A stretch of DNA of 64,000 nt from positions 31,417 through 95,416 of IMG/VR virus record IMGVR_UViG_2757320620_000001; one strand, 5' to 3'. The notes under the pieces are model-generated. The model was not told the DNA's origin, ran no database searches, and was given only the letters and a program-made list of their open reading frames with translations. Below, piece after piece: positions 65-46,952 of this stretch (positions are counted from its first letter, which is position 1; each line of letters opens with the position of its first letter). The stretch comes from a virus. Its lineage: Duplodnaviria; Heunggongvirae; Uroviricota; Caudoviricetes. The position numbers and the translations under genes were made by a program.

Positions 65-1606
65 TTGAACGCAACCGCAGCCCTTTCGCTTATTCGCGAA
101 ATCGCTAATTCGCCCGGCCGCCTGGATAAACAGGCCGGCCTCGATAAGCTGCTCGCCAGCGATCTCGGCAAGTTCATCCTCAAGTGGACCTACGATCCGT
201 TCATCACCTTTGGAATCACGGTGAAGAAGATGCCGGCTCACAATCCTCTGCCTGATGTGACGATCAATAATCCCTCGGTCGACGCCCATCTGATCGATCT
301 GTCCACACGCGCGCTGTCGGGCAACGCCGCAAAGGAAGCCACTGATTATCTCCTTTCGGTTCTTGACGAGCCTTCGCGCGAAATCCTCTTCCTGATCCTC
401 AACAAGGATCTGAAGGCCGGCATTGCCAACACGACGATCGAATCCGTGCTGCCGGGCTTCCTGCCGTCGTTCGGCGTCATGCGCGCTCACCCATACGAAG
501 ACAGCCGCGTCACGAAATTCCCGGTTCCGATCGAGCCGAAGCTCGACGGTTACCGCTGCACCTTCATCGCGAAGGAAGGGAAGGGCGCCTTTTTCACCAG
601 GTCGGGCAAAGCCATTCCGGCGTTCCAGGAGCTGGCCGAGCCGCTGCTTGAGGCAGCGAAGCACATTCGGCAAGAGGCGCGCAACGGCGACGTCGATGAT
701 CACTACCGCGACCTGGCGCTGATGCTGTTCGATGGCAACAACGTCGAGCCGACCTTTGTTCTCGACGGTGAAGCGCTCTACGGGCTCTTTGCGAACATGG
801 GCGCGATCAAGCGAAAGAACGGCCAGCTCTACGATGGTGAGCTGCACGCCTTCGATCTGCTGCCGCTCTCCGGCTTCCTCGGCAACACGCCCTATAAGGT
901 TCCCTACGAGAAGCGTCGCGAGCTGTTGTCGACCTTCGTCTCGGAGCTGCGCAGCGTGACCAATGCGCCGGTCTACCAGACGCCGACCTACGAGGCGAAC
1001 AGTCACGAGGAAATCCAGGAGATCTACGAGCGCCTGGTCAATCAGACGATCGCCAATTACCTCGCTCGCGGCGACAAGGCTCGCGAAGCCGAGCTGGCGA
1101 AGAACACGATCGACAAGGCAACCGGCAAGCTGAAGTGCCTCGAAGGCGCGATGGTGAAGAGCTACGAGGGGCCATACGAAAAGAAAAAGTCCTACACCTG
1201 GTTGAAAATCAAGCCCGAGGACACGATCGACCTCTTCGTCGTCGGCTTCTACAACGGCAAGGAAAACGACGAGAACGAGAACCGCCTGGGCGGCGTCATT
1301 GTCGACCATAAGGGCGTCGAGGTGCGCATCGGCGGTGGCTGGTCGAGCGATGACCGCGATCAGCTCTGGGAAGATTGGCAGCACGACGCCGCTCTGCTCG
1401 GAATCGACCCGAAGGTCGGCTACAAGAAAGGTCACTCGCTCGCGCCGGCCGACGTCCACGAGAAAGGCTACAAGCTCCTCGGTCGCATGCTCGAAATTGA
1501 GTTCAACGAGGTGACGCCCGACGGTTCGCTGCGCCACCCGCGCGCTGTGCGCTTCCGCGACGACAAGGCCGGCGAAGCGCTTGCCGAACTGAAGGCGGCC
1601 GCGTGA
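65..1606 (+). CDS. ATP-dependent DNA ligase
   Basis: TTG start 6 nt after an AAGGAGA RBS. Nucleotidyltransferase motif I K-x-D-G-x-R is present as EPKLDGYRCTF. Length of 513 aa fits phage/bacterial ATP ligases. Confidence 0.85.
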   Translation: MNATAALSLIREIANSPGRLDKQAGLDKLLASDLGKFILKWTYDPFITFGITVKKMPAHNPLPDVTINNPSVDAHLIDLSTRALSGNAAKEATDYLLSVLDEPSREILFLILNKDLKAGIANTTIESVLPGFLPSFGVMRAHPYEDSRVTKFPVPIEPKLDGYRCTFIAKEGKGAFFTRSGKAIPAFQELAEPLLEAAKHIRQEARNGDVDDHYRDLALMLFDGNNVEPTFVLDGEALYGLFANMGAIKRKNGQLYDGELHAFDLLPLSGFLGNTPYKVPYEKRRELLSTFVSELRSVTNAPVYQTPTYEANSHEEIQEIYERLVNQTIANYLARGDKAREAELAKNTIDKATGKLKCLEGAMVKSYEGPYEKKKSYTWLKIKPEDTIDLFVVGFYNGKENDENENRLGGVIVDHKGVEVRIGGGWSSDDRDQLWEDWQHDAALLGIDPKVGYKKGHSLAPADVHEKGYKLLGRMLEIEFNEVTPDGSLRHPRAVRFRDDKAGEALAELKAAA

Positions 1607-7116: not shown

Positions 7117-7138
7117 ATCCCATCGCTACGCTTGTTAG

Positions 7139-7158
7139 TAAGTAAATATTGATTGAGA
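7139..7158. promoter_or_regulatory. motif copy (TAAGTAAATATTGATTGA), upstream of the cobS-like gene
   Basis: 35 bp upstream of ATG 7193. Confidence 0.5.
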
Positions 7159-7192: not shown

Positions 7193-8413
7193 ATGAGCGA
7201 CGACATGATCACCTGCCAGATCGACGGCGGGAAAACACATTCCATCCGCATCTATCTCAGAGAGAACCATCCCGACTGGACGGTCGAGCGCTACAAGGAA
7301 GCCTATCCCGGCCAGCCGACGCTGTCTGAGCGTGGCAAGCGAGCCGCGCTGAAGGCCAAAGAGGCTGCTGATCGCAAGTCCGCTGCCGCATCCTTCCAGC
7401 CGGGCCAGGCTTTTGCCTTCGCAGAGCGCTCCCTCTCCGAAATCTTCGGCCTCGATGCGTCGACGGCGCTGTCATCGACCGGCAATCCGATCATGCTGCG
7501 CTGCCTGACCGAGCATCATCCCGAGGCTGACGCCTACGTCAACGACGTCGATGCCGACTACGTCTTCAATATCGACCTCGTCAAGAAAGTCTGCCTCGGC
7601 TTCGAGCTCGGCATGAACGTCTATCTCTGGGGCTATCACGGCACTGGCAAGACGACCGTGCTCGAGCAGTGCGCCGCCCGCACCGGCCGGCCGTTCTTGC
7701 GCGTCCAGCACACCGGCAACACCGAAGAGGCGCACATTCTCGGCCAGTATGTCGTCAAGTCCGTGCTCGTCGACGCTCAGGAGCTCGGCCCCGACGGCAA
7801 GCTCCACATCGTCAAGAAGCCGCAGACCGTCACCGAGTTTCAGTATGGTCCGCTGGCGATGGCGATGAAATACGGCATGGTCTACTGCGCTGACGAATAC
7901 GACTTCGCCATGCCGTCGGTGATCGCGCTCTATCAGCCGGTGCTCGAGGGCAAGCCGCTCGTCATCAAGGATGCGCCGATCGATCAGCGCGTCATTCATC
8001 CGCATCCCGACTTCCGCTTCGTTGCGACCGGCAACACCAACGGCGTCGGCGACGAGACGGGCCTCTACCAAGGCACGATGATCCAGAACGCAGCCTCCTA
8101 CTCGCGCTTCCACATCACCGAAGAGGTGAAATACATGGACGCCAAGCAGGAAAGCCTGGTGCTGCGCTCGAAGGCCGGGCTCGGCAAGGCCGACGCCGAC
8201 AAGTTCGTCAAGGTCGCGAATTCGATCCGCGAGAGCTTCACCAAGGGCGAAATGTCGATGACGATCTCGCCGCGCGAGCTGATCACGGCAGCGTCGCTGA
8301 CGATCGTCTTCGGTAACAATCCGACGCTCGGCTTCAAGCTCGCATTCGCCAACCGCTGCTCCCGCGTCGACCAGGTGACGGTCGAGCAAGTGCTGCAGAG
8401 GCACTTCGCATGA
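7193..8413 (+). CDS. CobS-like / MoxR-family AAA+ ATPase
   Basis: Walker A GYHGTGKTT and Walker B-like VYCADEYD. At 406 aa and immediately after the CobT-like VWA gene, this is the classical CobS/CobT pairing. Confidence 0.75.
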   Translation: MSDDMITCQIDGGKTHSIRIYLRENHPDWTVERYKEAYPGQPTLSERGKRAALKAKEAADRKSAAASFQPGQAFAFAERSLSEIFGLDASTALSSTGNPIMLRCLTEHHPEADAYVNDVDADYVFNIDLVKKVCLGFELGMNVYLWGYHGTGKTTVLEQCAARTGRPFLRVQHTGNTEEAHILGQYVVKSVLVDAQELGPDGKLHIVKKPQTVTEFQYGPLAMAMKYGMVYCADEYDFAMPSVIALYQPVLEGKPLVIKDAPIDQRVIHPHPDFRFVATGNTNGVGDETGLYQGTMIQNAASYSRFHITEEVKYMDAKQESLVLRSKAGLGKADADKFVKVANSIRESFTKGEMSMTISPRELITAASLTIVFGNNPTLGFKLAFANRCSRVDQVTVEQVLQRHFA

Positions 8414-9045
8414 CGATCGACCACAAGGAGAGCGTCGATCTGATCCGGCGTCTGTCCTGGTCGATCGCAAGAAAGCTTCATGGCAACGGCGCAACGTCGC
8501 TCAGCCATGAAGACGTCGAGCAGGAGCTTTGGCTCGTCTGGTGCCGCGCACGCGACACGTTCGATCCGACGCTCGGCGTGCCCTTCAAGGCCTATCTGAT
8601 CGAGGGCATTCGCCGGTCGAAGCTTGCGATCAATCGCCAGATGTTCAAGCGCATCGGCGAGGAGCGCGCCCAGCGGCTCGACGCCCCGGTTGGCAACGAC
8701 GGCGAAGGTGACAACCTGATCGACCTGATGCCCTCGAGCGCACCCTTGCCGGATGCGCAGGTGGATGAAGCCACCCACATCGCATGGGCGCTGAAGAAGC
8801 TGTCAGAGCGCACCGCGCTGTTCCTGAAGCTCCTCTACGAGCAGCCGCCCGAGCTCCTGGAGCAGATGCGTCTGCTGAAGGCGCGCGCTGAATACGCCAA
8901 GTCGATCGGCGCGCAGAACATTCTGATCAGCCACATAACGACGTCCTTCGTGTTTCGCCTGATGGACGCCGATCGCCCGGAACGCACGAAGATCCTCGCC
9001 GAGCTGCGCACGCTCTCCGAGAAGGTTCAAAGGACTGCCGCATGA
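8410..9045 (+). CDS. sigma-70 family (ECF-like) sigma factor
   Basis: Region-2-like segment DVEQELWLVWCRARDTFDPTLGVPFKAYLIEGIRRS. It has an ATGA overlap with the cobS-like gene. Region 4 is less clear. Confidence 0.5.
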   Translation: MTIDHKESVDLIRRLSWSIARKLHGNGATSLSHEDVEQELWLVWCRARDTFDPTLGVPFKAYLIEGIRRSKLAINRQMFKRIGEERAQRLDAPVGNDGEGDNLIDLMPSSAPLPDAQVDEATHIAWALKKLSERTALFLKLLYEQPPELLEQMRLLKARAEYAKSIGAQNILISHITTSFVFRLMDADRPERTKILAELRTLSEKVQRTAA

Positions 9046-15230: not shown

Positions 15231-15342
15231 TCACTGCGCCGCGCGTTCACGCGCAGTGATCTCTGGCCCGGCACGTCGCGCTGCCGGGCCTGTTCGTCAG
15301 GAGGTTGCACCCCTGTCTCCCGTTGTTCGCTCGCAACCTCCT
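15231..15342 (+). promoter_or_regulatory. three consecutive stable hairpins downstream of the gp32-like gene
   Basis: TCACTGCGC/GCGCAGTGA (15231-15259), GGCCCGGCA/TGCCGGGCC (15265-15290) and AGGAGGTTGC/GCAACCTCCT (15299-15342). None has a clean U-tract. Confidence 0.35.
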
Positions 15343-15373
15343 GACGCCCCTTCCCCGAGATAAAGGCTTAGAA

Positions 15374-28699: not shown

Positions 28700-28948
28700 A
28701 TGGGTATTCACGTTCTCGTCCGGACTACGCCGCCCTGCGGCTACTGCGTCAAGACCAAGGCTCTGCTCGACATGAAGGGTCTTGCCTACACGACCGAGGA
28801 TCACGAGACGCCGGAGAGGGTCGAGGCCTTCAAGAACGCCGGGCACCGCTCCTTTCCGCGCGTCTTCATCGATGACGAGCTGATCGGTGGTTTCGACGAG
28901 CTGCAGGCGCACCTTCAGGACAAGTCGTCGGGAGATGATGATTTCTGA
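28700..28948 (+). CDS. glutaredoxin (NrdH-like)
   Basis: The motif C-G-Y-C in TTPPCGYCVKTKALL is the glutaredoxin CxxC active site. The gene is 82 aa and sits directly after the RNR genes. Confidence 0.7.
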   Translation: MGIHVLVRTTPPCGYCVKTKALLDMKGLAYTTEDHETPERVEAFKNAGHRSFPRVFIDDELIGGFDELQAHLQDKSSGDDDF

Positions 28949-28980
28949 AAATAACTGTTGAGTCCCATCGCTGCGCTTGC

Positions 28981-29003
28981 TAGTAAGTAAATGTTGATTG
29001 AAC
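28981..29003. promoter_or_regulatory. motif copy (TAGTAAGTAAATGTTGATTGAAC) in the loop of an 11 bp hairpin (CGCTGCGCTTG/CAAGCGCAGCG), part of the third bipartite module
   Basis: The stretch 28974-29012 is 36/39 identical to 7120-7158. Confidence 0.5.
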
Positions 29004-29120
29004 ACAAGCGCAGCGAAATCAAACAGCGAGGTGAACATGAAGCGCCTTTAGGTGACCGTCGGAACAAGTCCAAAATTGATTAGCCCAAGACGAGCCGGGA
29101 TCGTCAGAAAATAAGCCCGG

Positions 29121-29225
29121 CCCTTATGCGAAGTGCGTGACGGCCCACGCGATATGGGTCGGTCACAGTAGGAAGTGGCGAGAGGGGTGTTCCTACCATT
29201 CTTCGATCCGCACTTCGCATAAGGG
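29121..29225. other. 105 nt element bounded by 17 bp perfect inverted arms (CCCTTATGCGAAGTGCG ... CGCACTTCGCATAAGGG) with an internal 7 bp hairpin
   Basis: Arms at 29121-29137 and 29209-29225 are exact reverse complements. The internal hairpin is GTAGGAA/TTCCTAC (29168-29196). It lies 66 nt upstream of tRNA-Cys in a 355 bp ORF-free gap. Confidence 0.5.
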
Positions 29226-29291
29226 ATGGATGACAGTTAGAGCGTAATCGCTGCTGAAAGTCGGCTCACACCGATCATCCCTTTTCAGACT

Positions 29292-29366
29292 GAGCTGGTG
29301 CCGGAATTGGTCACGGGACGGATTGCAAATCCGTTCATGCGGGTTCGAGTCCCGTCTAGCTCTCCA
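29292..29366 (+). tRNA. tRNA-Cys (anticodon GCA), CCA encoded
   Basis: Hand-folded cloverleaf: acceptor GAGCTGG/CTAGCTC (two G-U pairs), 3 bp D stem, anticodon stem ACGGA/TCCGT with loop TTGCAAA, 4 nt variable loop, T arm GCGGG-TTCGAGT-CCCGT, discriminator T and a 3' CCA. Confidence 0.8.
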
Positions 29367-29367
29367 T

Positions 29368-29386
29368 AAGTAAACTTTGATTGAGG
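29368..29386. promoter_or_regulatory. motif copy (AAGTAAACTTTGATTGAGG) immediately 3' of tRNA-Cys
   Basis: 8 bp upstream of ORF 29394. Confidence 0.45.
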
Positions 29387-29393
29387 AGACAGC

Positions 29394-29666
29394 ATGTCAG
29401 CCGCAATTCTTCAATTCCCGGTGCGCCAGAAGGCAGCGCCGACACCGGCCAAAATCGACATCACCGAGCAGGAATGCCGGCTGCTCGATAGCACCAAGAC
29501 CATCCTCGATCGCGTCCTTGACGTCGTGAACACCGACCAGAAGCTCATTCGCAGCTTCCTCGCCGGCGACAAGATGATCCAAGCCGCCTTCAAACACCTC
29601 GGCGTCGAATACAACGTCCGTGTCTCCCTCGAGGAAGCACACGACAACGGCCCGAGGTTCGCATGA
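29394..29666 (+). CDS. hypothetical protein (90 aa)
   Basis: ATG with a GAGGAGAC RBS, directly after the motif at 29368-29386. Confidence 0.4.
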   Translation: MSAAILQFPVRQKAAPTPAKIDITEQECRLLDSTKTILDRVLDVVNTDQKLIRSFLAGDKMIQAAFKHLGVEYNVRVSLEEAHDNGPRFA

Positions 29667-29851
29667 GCCAGGTGATCGTTCCTAATCTAAGGCCCCTCCT
29701 CCCGGCCGACTTGAAGGAAACGATCACCTGGCTGCGCGAGGACGCAACCAGACAATTCATCAACGGCAATGTCCGCGGCTCGAGCTATCGGCACGCGCTC
29801 GCGGGCGAACTTGAAAGGAGCATCCGTGAGCGAACGTCGGATCACGACTAA
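29663..29851 (+). CDS. hypothetical protein (62 aa)
   Basis: ATGA-coupled. Confidence 0.3.
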   Translation: MSQVIVPNLRPLLPADLKETITWLREDATRQFINGNVRGSSYRHALAGELERSIRERTSDHD

Positions 29852-32468: not shown

Positions 32469-32508
32469 GAGTGCTCAGTAAATATTGATTGAGCACTCTT
32501 TTTGTTTT
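32469..32508 (+). terminator. rho-independent terminator whose loop contains the recurrent motif (GAGTGCTCA-GTAAATATTGAT-TGAGCACTC + TTTTTGTTTT)
   Basis: Perfect 9 bp stem (32469-32477 / 32490-32498) followed by a T-run, 29 bp after the SPFH gene stop. Confidence 0.6.
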
Positions 32509-33858: not shown

Positions 33859-33880
33859 TTCAGTAAATATTGATTGATCG
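33859..33880. promoter_or_regulatory. motif copy (TTCAGTAAATATTGATTGATCG), upstream of the rIIA-like gene
   Basis: Preceded by the hairpin CACGCGCA/TGCGCGTG (33829-33853). Confidence 0.5.
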
Positions 33881-43400: not shown

Positions 43401-43531
43401 CGGCAGTCGGCCAATACGACCCAAAGCTCGGGCGCGACCGCACCCATAGCGACGATTTTTACGATCACCGCAAACTGGTCCAGGAGCGCATCACTGACGC
43501 CCTGCGCCGTGAAAAGGAAGGAAAGAAGTGA
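43397..43531 (+). CDS. hypothetical protein (44 aa)
   Basis: ATGA-coupled. Confidence 0.25.
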   Translation: MTAVGQYDPKLGRDRTHSDDFYDHRKLVQERITDALRREKEGKK

Positions 43532-44985
43532 GCAATATCTCTGGGAAGACCCTCGTCGCGTGGGGCCTCGAGCCTGGCGCCTGGTTCAAGGACGCTCTGC
43601 CAGTCGCCAATGCGATGCGCGCCGAGGGCAAGACCGATCGCCAGATCATCGACCACCTCTTCACGCTGCGCGTCATGCCCAACGTGACTGAAGGCGTGCC
43701 GCTGCGCACGAACTCCATCCCGTTCGGTCGCTTCATCGAGCCGGAGAGCGAGGACGAGATCCTAAACACTGCGTCGGTCATTGCGCACATGGATGCGCTG
43801 CTGCGCACCCCGACGATCGTCAAGGGCGCGGTTATGCCTGACGCCTGCCCTTCCGGCAGCCAGATGGGCACGATTCCCGTCGGTGGCGTCGTGGCGACCA
43901 AAGACGCGATCCATCCGGGCTTCCACTCGGCCGATATCTGCTGCTCCGTCGCCATGAGCGTCTTCAAGCGCAACAACGACACCGGCAACGTCATGACCGC
44001 GGCGATGAAAGCGACCCACTTTGGTCCCGGCGCCCGGCCGGACAGCAAGGATATCCCGTCGGCCTTCACGCCGATCCTCGGCCAGATCATCGCCAAGTTC
44101 GACAGCAACCCGTTCCTGCGCGGCCTCGAGGATATCGCGGTCGAGCACTTCATGACCCAGGGTGACGGCAATCACTTCCTGTTCGTCGGCGAGCTGGAGA
44201 GCACGAAGCAGATGGCGATCGTCACGCATCACGGCTCGCGCGGCCTCGGCGCCCAGCTCTACAAGCGCGGCAAGCGGGTCGCAGAGAAGCACACGCGCAT
44301 CGTCGCGCCGCGCGTCCCGCTGCACAACGCCTGGATCGACGCCAACAGCGAAGACGGCCAGGCCTACTGGGACGCCTTGCAGATCATCCGGCTGTGGACG
44401 AAATACAATCACTTCGGCATCCACCAGCTGATCTCGCACTATCTCGGCAACGCGATTGTCGACCAGGTCTGGAACGAGCACAATTTCGTCTTCCGGCGCG
44501 CCGACGGGCTCTACTACCACGGCAAGGGCGCGACGCCCTCCTATGACGGCTTTGCCGCTGATGACCAGGGTCTGACGCTGATCCCGCTCAACATGGCGCA
44601 GCCGATCCTCGTCACCAAGCACGCCAACAACGAGGACGCGCTCGGCTTTGCCCCGCACGGCGCCGGCCGCAATCTGTCACGCACGGCGCACCTGAAGCGC
44701 CTGGCAGCTGCATACGGCTCTGACGACCGCGGCTTGAGCCCGCGCGACGTGTCGACCCAGATGGTCAAGGAGACGGCCGGCCTCGACGTGCGCTTCTACA
44801 CCGGCTTTGCCGACCCGTCGGAGTTCCCGTCTGCCTATAAGAGCGCCGACCAGGTGCAGGCGCAGATCAAGCAGCACGGCCTGGCCGAGGTTGTCGATCG
44901 CGTTCTGCCCAAGGGCTCGATCATGGCCGGCGAGATGAAGTGGCAGCGCGCCAAGAAAAAGAAGCCCGAGGTCGTCGCCTCGTAA
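43528..44985 (+). CDS. rtcB: RtcB-family RNA 3'-phosphate ligase
   Basis: Conserved RtcB metal- and GMP-binding residues in context: VMPDACPSG, DICCSV, HHGSRGLG, GDGNHFLF, APHGAGRN. Length 485 aa. Confidence 0.75.
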   Translation: MSNISGKTLVAWGLEPGAWFKDALPVANAMRAEGKTDRQIIDHLFTLRVMPNVTEGVPLRTNSIPFGRFIEPESEDEILNTASVIAHMDALLRTPTIVKGAVMPDACPSGSQMGTIPVGGVVATKDAIHPGFHSADICCSVAMSVFKRNNDTGNVMTAAMKATHFGPGARPDSKDIPSAFTPILGQIIAKFDSNPFLRGLEDIAVEHFMTQGDGNHFLFVGELESTKQMAIVTHHGSRGLGAQLYKRGKRVAEKHTRIVAPRVPLHNAWIDANSEDGQAYWDALQIIRLWTKYNHFGIHQLISHYLGNAIVDQVWNEHNFVFRRADGLYYHGKGATPSYDGFAADDQGLTLIPLNMAQPILVTKHANNEDALGFAPHGAGRNLSRTAHLKRLAAAYGSDDRGLSPRDVSTQMVKETAGLDVRFYTGFADPSEFPSAYKSADQVQAQIKQHGLAEVVDRVLPKGSIMAGEMKWQRAKKKKPEVVAS

Positions 44986-46930: not shown

Positions 46931-46952
46931 GGTCAGTAAAAATTGATTGACC
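46931..46952. promoter_or_regulatory. motif copy (GGTCAGTAAAAATTGATTGACC), extended palindrome
   Basis: Upstream of ORF 46999. Confidence 0.5.

Follow-up and report, generated by a model that had tools for sequence, protein, structure and literature searches.

The stretch of DNA analysed here (the window, 64,000 nucleotides) corresponds to Rhizobium phage RHEph10 (JX483881) with 100% identity; positions in the window equal those of the JX483881 record minus 31416. Phages of the RHEph10 group have been described as plasmid-like prophages or phage-plasmids (PMC4447125, PMC7969092), and a RepC replicon is annotated in the phage-plasmids of this group. The element under study is flanked by ribonucleotide reductase and glutaredoxin (grx) genes and by a run of small ORFs preceding thymidylate synthase (thyX). 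The neighbouring genes and a tRNA-Cys, the single tRNA detected by ARAGORN in the whole window, are all located on the + strand like the element itself. The preliminary description had placed the element in an ORF-free gap of 355 bp before this tRNA. Counted from the glutaredoxin stop codon (28948) the gap measures 343 nt instead. No conserved ORF was found in it, as had been stated, and a 30-aa leader ORF (28991-29083) was rejected as a gene since single-base indels disrupt it in relatives.

The locus was compared with those of five sequenced Rhizobium phages representing three versions, N1_15 (= N2_6), Y2_11 (= Y2_17_1), and N1_10, as well as of the Pararhizobium "plasmid" p5 (115.6 kb) and three IMG/VR viral contigs. 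Including RHEph10, 8 distinct loci were thus available. Most of the 343-nt gap is conserved, functional-looking sequence rather than spacer, and the following features were assigned to the region:

28958-29001, + strand: putative promoter/operator module TTGAGT-N17-TAGTAA, overlapping the palindromic motif TAAGTAAATGTTGATTGA; near-identical in 8/8 related loci
29002-29120, + strand: conserved non-coding leader with a Shine-Dalgarno sequence GAGGTG (29028-29033)
29094-29121, + strand: invariant leader hairpin GCCGGG / CCCGGC directly adjoining the long stem; A-rich loop of 16 nt
29121-29225, + strand: module A, the element under study, a predicted three-way-junction RNA with homologues in N1_15/N2_6, Pararhizobium p5, and UViG_3300046615
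29121-29137 / 29209-29225, + strand: helix P1 of module A
29138-29165, + strand: helix P2 with a bulged G at 29162
29168-29174 / 29190-29196, + strand: helix P3 with loop 29175-29189 (GGCGA.GA.GGG conserved)
29197-29208, + strand: 3' junction strand J3/1, conserved in sequence
29221-29283, + strand: module B, a second predicted structured RNA with closing stem AAGGGATG / CATCCCTT and a core GATGACAGTTAGAGCGTAATCGCTGCTGAAAG plus hairpin
29292-29366, + strand: tRNA-Cys (GCA) with encoded CCA end (ARAGORN; Rfam tRNA model, 56.2 bits)
29367-29396, + strand: right-hand conserved flank with a second operator-like motif copy (TAAGTAAACTTTGATTGA), found by direct-repeat and motif searches and locus comparison

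A second, paralogous copy of the promoter module is located at 7118-7156 (92% identity over 39 nt). The 18-nt palindromic motif occurs 24 times in the window compared to 0.05 expected occurrences, mostly right before gene starts. The copy directly 3' of tRNA-Cys (29367-29384) merges with the Shine-Dalgarno sequence and the start codon of gp074 (29394). From the repeated motif we infer a promoter function of the module at 28958-29001; a generic sigma-70 scan did not call it.

Promoter and leader share pairwise identities of 84-98% among the 8 loci. The leader contains a mini-ORF, ATG AAG CGC CTT TAG (29037-29051), and all 8 loci keep the Shine-Dalgarno sequence, the start codon, 2-4 variable codons, and the stop. 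The resulting peptide versions are MKRL, MKSL, MKHL, MKQ, MKLI, MTKF, and MKK. RNAalifold found no covariation in the leader across the 8 loci, because it is conserved at the sequence level. The 6-bp hairpin reported upstream of the element is present (29094-29099 / 29116-29121), and the last C of this hairpin, base 29121, is at the same time the first base of the long arm. Its stem is identical in 8/8 loci, so that the pairing is beyond the reach of covariation, and its loop differs by a single base in Y2_11. Searches for the exact hairpin pattern gave 3 matches in viral contigs (IMG/VR) and none in genome contigs or metagenome contigs. A pseudoknot between GACGA (29089-29093) and TCGTC (29101-29105) of this hairpin region may possibly form.

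The inverted repeat itself was confirmed as described: the exact reverse complement of the 17-mer CCCTTATGCGAAGTGCG (29121-29137) is present at 29209-29225, and the two arms enclose 71 nt. Among the perfect inverted repeats of the 64-kb window with arms up to 200 nt apart, this one is the longest. By our own arithmetic (64000 x 200 / 4^17) about 7.5e-4 such 17-bp repeats are expected by chance, and the repeat thus exceeds chance. The 105-nt element has a folding energy of -55.4 kcal/mol compared to -32.6 +/- 3.4 kcal/mol in dinucleotide shuffles (z = -6.8), and none of 200 shuffles folds as well. The 7-bp inner hairpin GTAGGAA / TTCCTAC is likewise present and coincides with P3, a helix supported by covariation.

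In module A, P1 runs straight into the bulged hairpin P2, and P3 branches off. In the alignment of the four module A copies, pairing extends to 95.9% of cells, and compensatory changes affect 8 pairs (3 in P1, 3 in P2, and 2 in P3). None of 500 shuffles was as good, a result to be read with the caveat that related sequences can beat every shuffle. Because there are four distinct sequences, three of which are mutually close, this covariation is qualitative and not statistically robust. In RHEph10 the fold supported by covariation has an energy of -49.4 kcal/mol as opposed to -55.4 kcal/mol for the minimum-free-energy fold, whose interior is not conserved among the module A homologues. G-U pairs occur at 6 positions when the + strand is read, while C-A mismatches, corresponding to G-U pairs on the - strand, occur at 2; a further + strand G-U pair is contributed by the stem of Y2_11. 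We therefore lean towards the + strand, in agreement with the neighbouring genes and the tRNA.

N1_15 and p5 share 82% identity in module A and 85.5% in promoter plus leader, compared to 73% for the coding sequence of grx and 64% for that of gp074, indicating that the non-coding parts are more constrained than the flanking genes. The corresponding comparison of RHEph10 and N1_15 gave 68% identity in module A and 86-92% in the flanks, and the cassette therefore has its own evolutionary history. In principle, perfect arms could be maintained by templated correction of DNA palindromes. The covariation of the inner hairpins would not obviously be explained in this way. The earlier reading as a structured RNA on the tRNA strand thus gained support from compensatory changes in the long stem and both inner hairpins, from the excess of + strand G-U pairs, and from the higher conservation of the element relative to the flanking genes.

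The locus comparison placed the element in a wider context. Common to all 8 loci are the promoter module, a leader of ~120 nt, and the invariant GCCGGG...CCCGGC hairpin. A closing stem of 17-21 bp, allowing one mismatch or wobble in some cassettes, begins at the same nucleotide in each of them, with no spacer after the leader hairpin. The interiors of these stems belong to five unrelated types:

RHEph10, N1_15, p5, and UViG_3300046615: three-way junction (module A)
N1_10: plain 21-bp hairpin with a 33-nt loop
UViG_2802428818: four-way junction
UViG_2751185820: module B
Y2_11: unrelated 150-nt structure with a different 18-bp stem

Over seven cassette types 94.2% of the closing-stem cells are paired, with both-sided changes in 10 of 20 pairs; 0/500 shuffles were as good, and slid controls were paired to 27-56%. 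The eighth type, Y2_11, has its unrelated 18-bp stem at the same start nucleotide. The outer 8 bp and two further pairs are unchanged in sequence, because the 5' arm runs directly on from the conserved leader. Three different downstream neighbours follow the stem among the loci. Between the stem and the conserved right flank there are optional extra modules, namely module B, tRNA-Cys, tRNA-like sequences, and module C. The contrast is sharpest between N1_10 and N1_15, whose flanks are 98-100% identical on both sides whereas the cassette interiors differ. In the more distant relatives B1VFA and X66 the entire non-coding region is absent, and no relative with an empty site was present among the loci compared, each of which carries a different filled cassette. 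As judged from these alignments, the element occupies the first slot of a cassette locus, and close relatives exchange the interior of this slot. Such rapid swapping points to an accessory role or one in host interaction, and less to a core function.

The distribution of the element is narrow and comprises about ten genomes or contigs. Searches for homologues guided by gp074 yielded nothing new, and a pattern search with the module A interior gave only chance matches in a coding family.

The 66-nt stretch between the element and tRNA-Cys is not plain spacer. It corresponds to module B, which has four homologues with a highly conserved core, 97.4% paired cells, and compensatory changes in 5 pairs. 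In UViG_2751185820 module B is enclosed by CCCTTATG...CATAAGGG arms and lies directly against G1 of tRNA-Cys, and in UViG_2648501443 it precedes a tRNA-Met with a third, different closing stem. Searches with module B against plasmids and phages gave matches limited to the tRNA-Met part of the query. In RHEph10 the sequence AAGGG (29221-29225) belongs both to the 5' strand of the module B stem and to the 3' arm of P1, so that the module B stem cannot form together with the outer 5 bp of P1. Module C, also linked to tRNA genes, likewise shows conserved structure, and in this phage group both modules seem to accompany tRNA genes. For module A such a linkage was not found, as it occurs without any tRNA in N1_15, p5, and UViG_3300046615, and tRNA-Cys occurs without module A in UViG_2751185820 and UViG_3300014019. 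The suggestion of a leader or processing structure specific for the tRNA does not hold for this reason. A terminator scan from the promoter to tRNA-Cys gave no call except a weak one inside module B. Because both are encoded on the same strand with no intervening terminator, co-transcription of the element with tRNA-Cys from the upstream promoter module is plausible.

Searches with Rfam 15 covariance models, which include tRNA, tmRNA, C4, Y RNA, riboswitches, and self-cleaving ribozymes, over positions 28900-29420 returned tRNA-Cys alone at E <= 10, and consequently no known RNA family explains the element at this threshold. Sub-threshold Rfam matches over the element, a hairpin of the miRNA-precursor type and the HSR-omega_2 lncRNA model, reached 13-16 bits and represent chance. 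Permissive Rfam scans of six related loci detected nothing beyond tRNA. A pseudo-tRNA, one of the identities considered at the outset, is without support: both ARAGORN and the Rfam tRNA model are silent over 29121-29225, and a T-arm and a D-arm are absent. No second copy of the element was detected by a pattern search in the window or by blastn and the covariance model R1 in 100 kb of the genome, and this locus is the only match of R1 in 235 kb searched. A gapped arm pattern matched 10 unrelated sites in 185,579 species genomes, none of them in Rhizobiaceae, compared to ~17 chance matches expected by our estimate. Blastn of the element against plasmids and other phages gave no match. Accordingly, no related copy of the 17-mer arms emerged from the genome, viral, plasmid, and phage searches. 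Overall, the element is a real conserved structured RNA, and neither Rfam nor the plasmid and phage collections that were searched contain a match to it. Two further functional assignments were rejected. An intrinsic terminator would need a U-tract, which is lacking: the 3' arm is followed by ATGGATGAC, the loop comprises 71 nt, and the scan did not call it. A replication origin is not indicated either, as there is no GC-skew inflection near the element.

Taken together, we favour with moderate confidence the view that the element is a small structured RNA of the + strand, co-transcribed with the tRNA, excised at its closing stem, and acting in trans. During lytic growth a phage promoter would drive a single non-coding precursor comprising the leader, module A, module B, and tRNA-Cys. 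The long stem would serve as an excision and end-protection device, cut by a double-strand-specific RNase and most plausibly by RNase III. This enzyme is the obvious candidate because the stem is long enough and its 5' strand is unbroken from P1 into P2. The stems of 8 cassette types attain the approximately two turns of uninterrupted double-stranded RNA associated with RNase III, and in RHEph10 nucleotides 1-27 of the element are all paired. RNase P and RNase E would release the adjacent tRNA. The freed RNA of ~100 nt may then act in trans, using its conserved P3 loop and 3' junction strand as contacts to a protein or RNA partner. That translation of the short leader ORF protects the 5' end is speculation.

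Most of the probability left by this picture goes to a cis-acting processing or stability stem. If the device acted only in cis, the stem would be an RNase III site or exonuclease barrier between the leader/grx RNA and the tRNA/gp074 RNA, and its interior would be incidental. Stems cut by RNase III are well known to punctuate phage polycistronic RNAs (T7) and rRNA operons. The sole feature common to the 8 loci is a stem of 17-21 bp flush with the leader hairpin, and the interiors are unrelated, that of N1_10 being merely a 33-nt loop. Since only the stem is universal and the interiors are replaced wholesale, in one case by a plain hairpin, a purely cis-acting role would be favoured by this pattern. 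It does not account for the covariation of P2 and P3, nor for the conservation of the P3 loop and J3/1 where the flanking genes have diverged to 64-73%. Moreover, a U-tract is missing, and with three different neighbours there is no evident tie to one downstream gene. We consider a function exclusively in cis rather unlikely. Improbable, in our estimation, is an antisense or immunity regulator resembling P1/P7 c4 or P4 CI, in which variable interiors would set specificity among phage-plasmids. The group of RHEph10 does consist of phage-plasmids (PMC4447125, PMC7969092), near-identical relatives differ strongly in their cassettes, as is usual for immunity determinants, and the shape, a closing stem with two hairpin loops, would fit. 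In p5 the P3 loop even has a 14-bp complement within a downstream ORF. No consistent target, however, emerged from a k-mer scan of the whole window or from searches for local duplexes in four phages. The best complement in the 64-kb window is 12 nt long, which is at chance level (~0.5 expected by our estimate), and the local duplexes found in each of the four phages lie at non-homologous sites and do not covary with the loops. In addition, Rfam C4 remained unmatched even at E <= 10, the element is located among nucleotide-metabolism genes and not in an immunity region, and neither RCCA after the stem nor another CCA-like RNase P 3' flank is present. The small chance that we assign to an RNA-only accessory hot spot is comparable. 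Here, the promoter, leader, and hairpin would form a fixed dock expressing swappable stem-capped small RNAs and tRNA-like RNAs for host takeover or counter-defence, and the RtcB of the phage might join their flush stem ends into nuclease-resistant circles. Decoys or inhibitors of host RNA-targeting immunity are examples of what such a dock might express.

The position in a tRNA island gives some appeal to a tRNA-like or Y-RNA-like decoy or scaffold for Ro/Rsr, an anticodon nuclease, or the phage RtcB in a contest of tRNA damage and repair. The slot of relatives holds tRNA-like sequences that neither ARAGORN nor Rfam calls, RHEph10 itself encodes RtcB (43528-44985; Pfam E = 3e-28), and 105 nt with a long terminal stem resemble the dimensions of Y RNAs (PMC4201824). 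The chances of this reading are nevertheless slim. Loops resembling those of T- or D-arms are lacking, no Y RNA or tRNA match was obtained from Rfam, RtcB is encoded 14 kb away, and the motif GNCGAAN0-1G is not conserved: RHEph10 has UGCGAAG, and the homologues have UGCGAAC, UGUGAAG, or UG-GAAG. In the annotation of the first 100 kb of the phage no TROVE/Ro gene is present, and consequently none lies within 4 kb of the element. A role at the DNA level as MITE, recombination site, cruciform, or single-strand hairpin origin is very improbable and largely refuted. Terminal inverted repeats matching in 17/17 bp are a MITE-like trait, and recombination has a hot spot at this locus, its breakpoints falling sharply at the stem. 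A MITE had been among the initial proposals, with flanking target-site duplications as its signature. The element is single-copy in the window and in 100 kb of the phage genome and without copies in the bacterial genomes searched, and its flanks, GCCCGG and ATGGAT, contain no target-site duplication. Empty sites and a GC-skew inflection are missing as well, covariation extends to the inner hairpins, and the G-U pairs favour one strand. A 71-nt loop also disfavours cruciform extrusion. Least credible of all is a micro-peptide of 11-13 aa that would start at an ATG or GTG in the P3 loop and end with the TAA of CATAAGGG. An in-frame start and a TAA stop are present in 4/4 module A copies, and both differences between N1_15 and UViG_3300046615 inside the frame are synonymous. 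One of these two changes, however, is compensatory within a stem, the conserved stem dictates the stop codon, there is no usable Shine-Dalgarno spacing, and the frame crosses the P3 and P1 stems. The RHEph10 version VFLPFFDPHFA is also unrelated to MGEPTAHWIGRFT. The 11-13-codon micro-ORF was rejected, as stem constraints explain it better.

Phage genomes are annotated almost wholly for proteins and tRNAs, while small RNAs adjacent to tRNA genes have been known since T4. The trans-acting RNA that we prefer would belong to a compact and testable system that combines a conserved expression platform with at least three unrelated RNA modules (A, B, and C) with signs of conserved structure, of which A and B have measured covariation. 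Natural cassette swaps are available between phages that were obtained on related Rhizobium hosts and otherwise share ~98% identity. Should the cassettes alter host range or resistance to RNA-targeting defence, they would constitute a new class of accessory determinants, and under the hot-spot reading phages would have in this locus an RNA equivalent of their protein anti-defence islands. Otherwise, the locus would still be a clean example of long stems organising the processing of a non-coding precursor in an alphaproteobacterial phage-plasmid.

Several known systems share traits with the element. MITEs and rhizobial RIME/REP-like elements are likewise ~100 nt long and intergenic with terminal inverted repeats, whereas the element is single-copy, absent from the bacterial genomes searched, and devoid of a target-site duplication. 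RNase III processing stems such as rRNA stalks and T7 R sites are similar in that a long, near-perfect stem encloses or separates RNAs. The element differs by its small, branched, and exchangeable interior and by the abutment of its stem on an invariant hairpin, and its cleavage is predicted. The c4 RNA of P1/P7 and CI of P4 are small structured RNAs of phage-plasmids that are cut from a longer transcript and whose loops set specificity. Processing of c4 by RNase P has been described (PMC4919922). In contrast to c4/CI (Rfam C4, RF01695), the element is not matched by the model, lacks a consistent target and a CCA-like flank, and is found in another neighbourhood.

Bacterial Y RNAs (YrlA/Yrn1) are 80-130 nt long with a long end-to-end stem and a branched upper domain, and occur also in some phages and in RtcB repair loci (PMC4201824). 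YrlA is recognised by the stem motif GNCGAAN0-1G, by loops like those of a T-arm and a D-arm, and by an rsr (TROVE) gene no more than 4 kb away (PMC4201824). The element differs from them in having neither such arms nor a conserved Ro-binding motif, nor an rsr gene in the annotation of the first 100 kb. By analogy, its closest counterparts seem to be small RNAs encoded in the tRNA regions of phages, represented by RNAC and RNAD, small non-coding RNAs from the tRNA region of phage T4 whose roles are unexplained (PMC3014915, PMC9697503). What the two have in common is a location next to phage tRNA genes and on their strand; a relationship in sequence or structure would not be expected. Unlike RNAC and RNAD, the RNAs of the RHEph10 family have a dedicated conserved leader and a cap stem of 17-21 bp, and are swapped between relatives. 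New is the modular arrangement, in which a fixed platform and a stem dock carry exchangeable structured interiors, complemented by modules B and C.

An 18-nt near-palindromic motif, TCAGTAAATATTGATTGA / TAAGTAAA..TTGATTGA, occurs in 24 copies in the window versus 0.05 expected, and most of these sites lie 10-40 nt ahead of a start codon. The motif resembles an operator at which a global phage repressor would bind, or else a promoter element that the phage-encoded sigma factor gp045 would recognise.

Features discussed (window positions unless a sequence from a relative is named)
7139-7156, 28984-29001, 29367-29384, 32475-32492, 33860-33877, 46933-46950: example sites, 6 of the 24 copies of the 18-nt motif
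8410-9045: sigma factor gp045
15295-15308 / 15333-15346: 14-bp perfect hairpin at the junction of two ORFs, with AGGAGG within its 5' arm
28968-28979 / 29005-29016: 12-bp perfect inverted repeat flanking the -10 region and operator of a putative promoter module
29028-29051: strong leader Shine-Dalgarno sequence (GAGGTG) and mini-ORF MKRL*
29666-29680 / 29719-29733: 15-bp perfect hairpin beginning 3 nt past the gp075 start codon
43528-44985, plus strand: RtcB-family RNA ligase (Pfam PF01139, E = 3e-28)
L004 2196-2352; L006 3090-3245, minus strand; L008 1012-1172, minus strand; L037 9900-10060, minus strand: module C, a third conserved non-coding module
L007 (IMGVR_UViG_2802428818_000001) 215-486, minus strand: pair of tRNA-like sequences following the cassette

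All relatives keep the 12-bp inverted repeat of the putative promoter module. The paralogous promoter module at 7118-7156 lacks the second arm of this repeat. The -35 part of the putative promoter module (28958-28969, GTTGAGTCCCATC) is similar to tRNA-Cys over its T-arm and 3' acceptor end (29345-29356, GTTCGAGTCCCGTC), and each of the two is followed by a copy of one and the same operator motif. This likeness together with the common operator may be a trace of insertion or duplication of the RNA island.

Module C, with the core GGAGAAAG.CTTCGACAATCTGC...CCCGGTGGA, is absent from RHEph10. In three relatives it is located upstream of the operator of the small ORF gp074, and in a 116-kb relative it resides in a different genomic context, adjoining a tRNA-like 3' end and tRNA-Cys. 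The tRNA-like pair in L007 has acceptor-like stems and GGTTCGA-type T arms, with a terminal ACCA in one of the two. Neither ARAGORN nor the Rfam tRNA and tmRNA models called these sequences, which may represent unusual or interrupted tRNAs.

The gp075 hairpin is probably a conserved mRNA structure, because in the relatives N1_15 and N1_10 a T>C change in it is matched by a compensatory A>G, which preserves the pairing. The 14-bp hairpin may sequester a ribosome-binding site. The RtcB gene lies 14 kb away from the RNA island and suggests that RNA is repaired or ligated during infection.

Start and stop of the leader mini-ORF were retained in 8 out of 8 related loci and also in the divergent locus UViG_3300014019 (MK*); the 1-4 codons between them are freely variable. 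Rfam contains no family matching the invariant leader hairpin (29089-29121), of which a shorter version (GCCGGG-AGGCTA-GCCCGGC) lies 10 nt upstream of tRNA-Met in another relative (L036). Judged from its sequence, the hairpin could form an H-type pseudoknot with GACGA / UCGUC nested with GCCGGG / CCCGGC and an A-rich third loop, an architecture that recalls small pseudoknot riboswitches.
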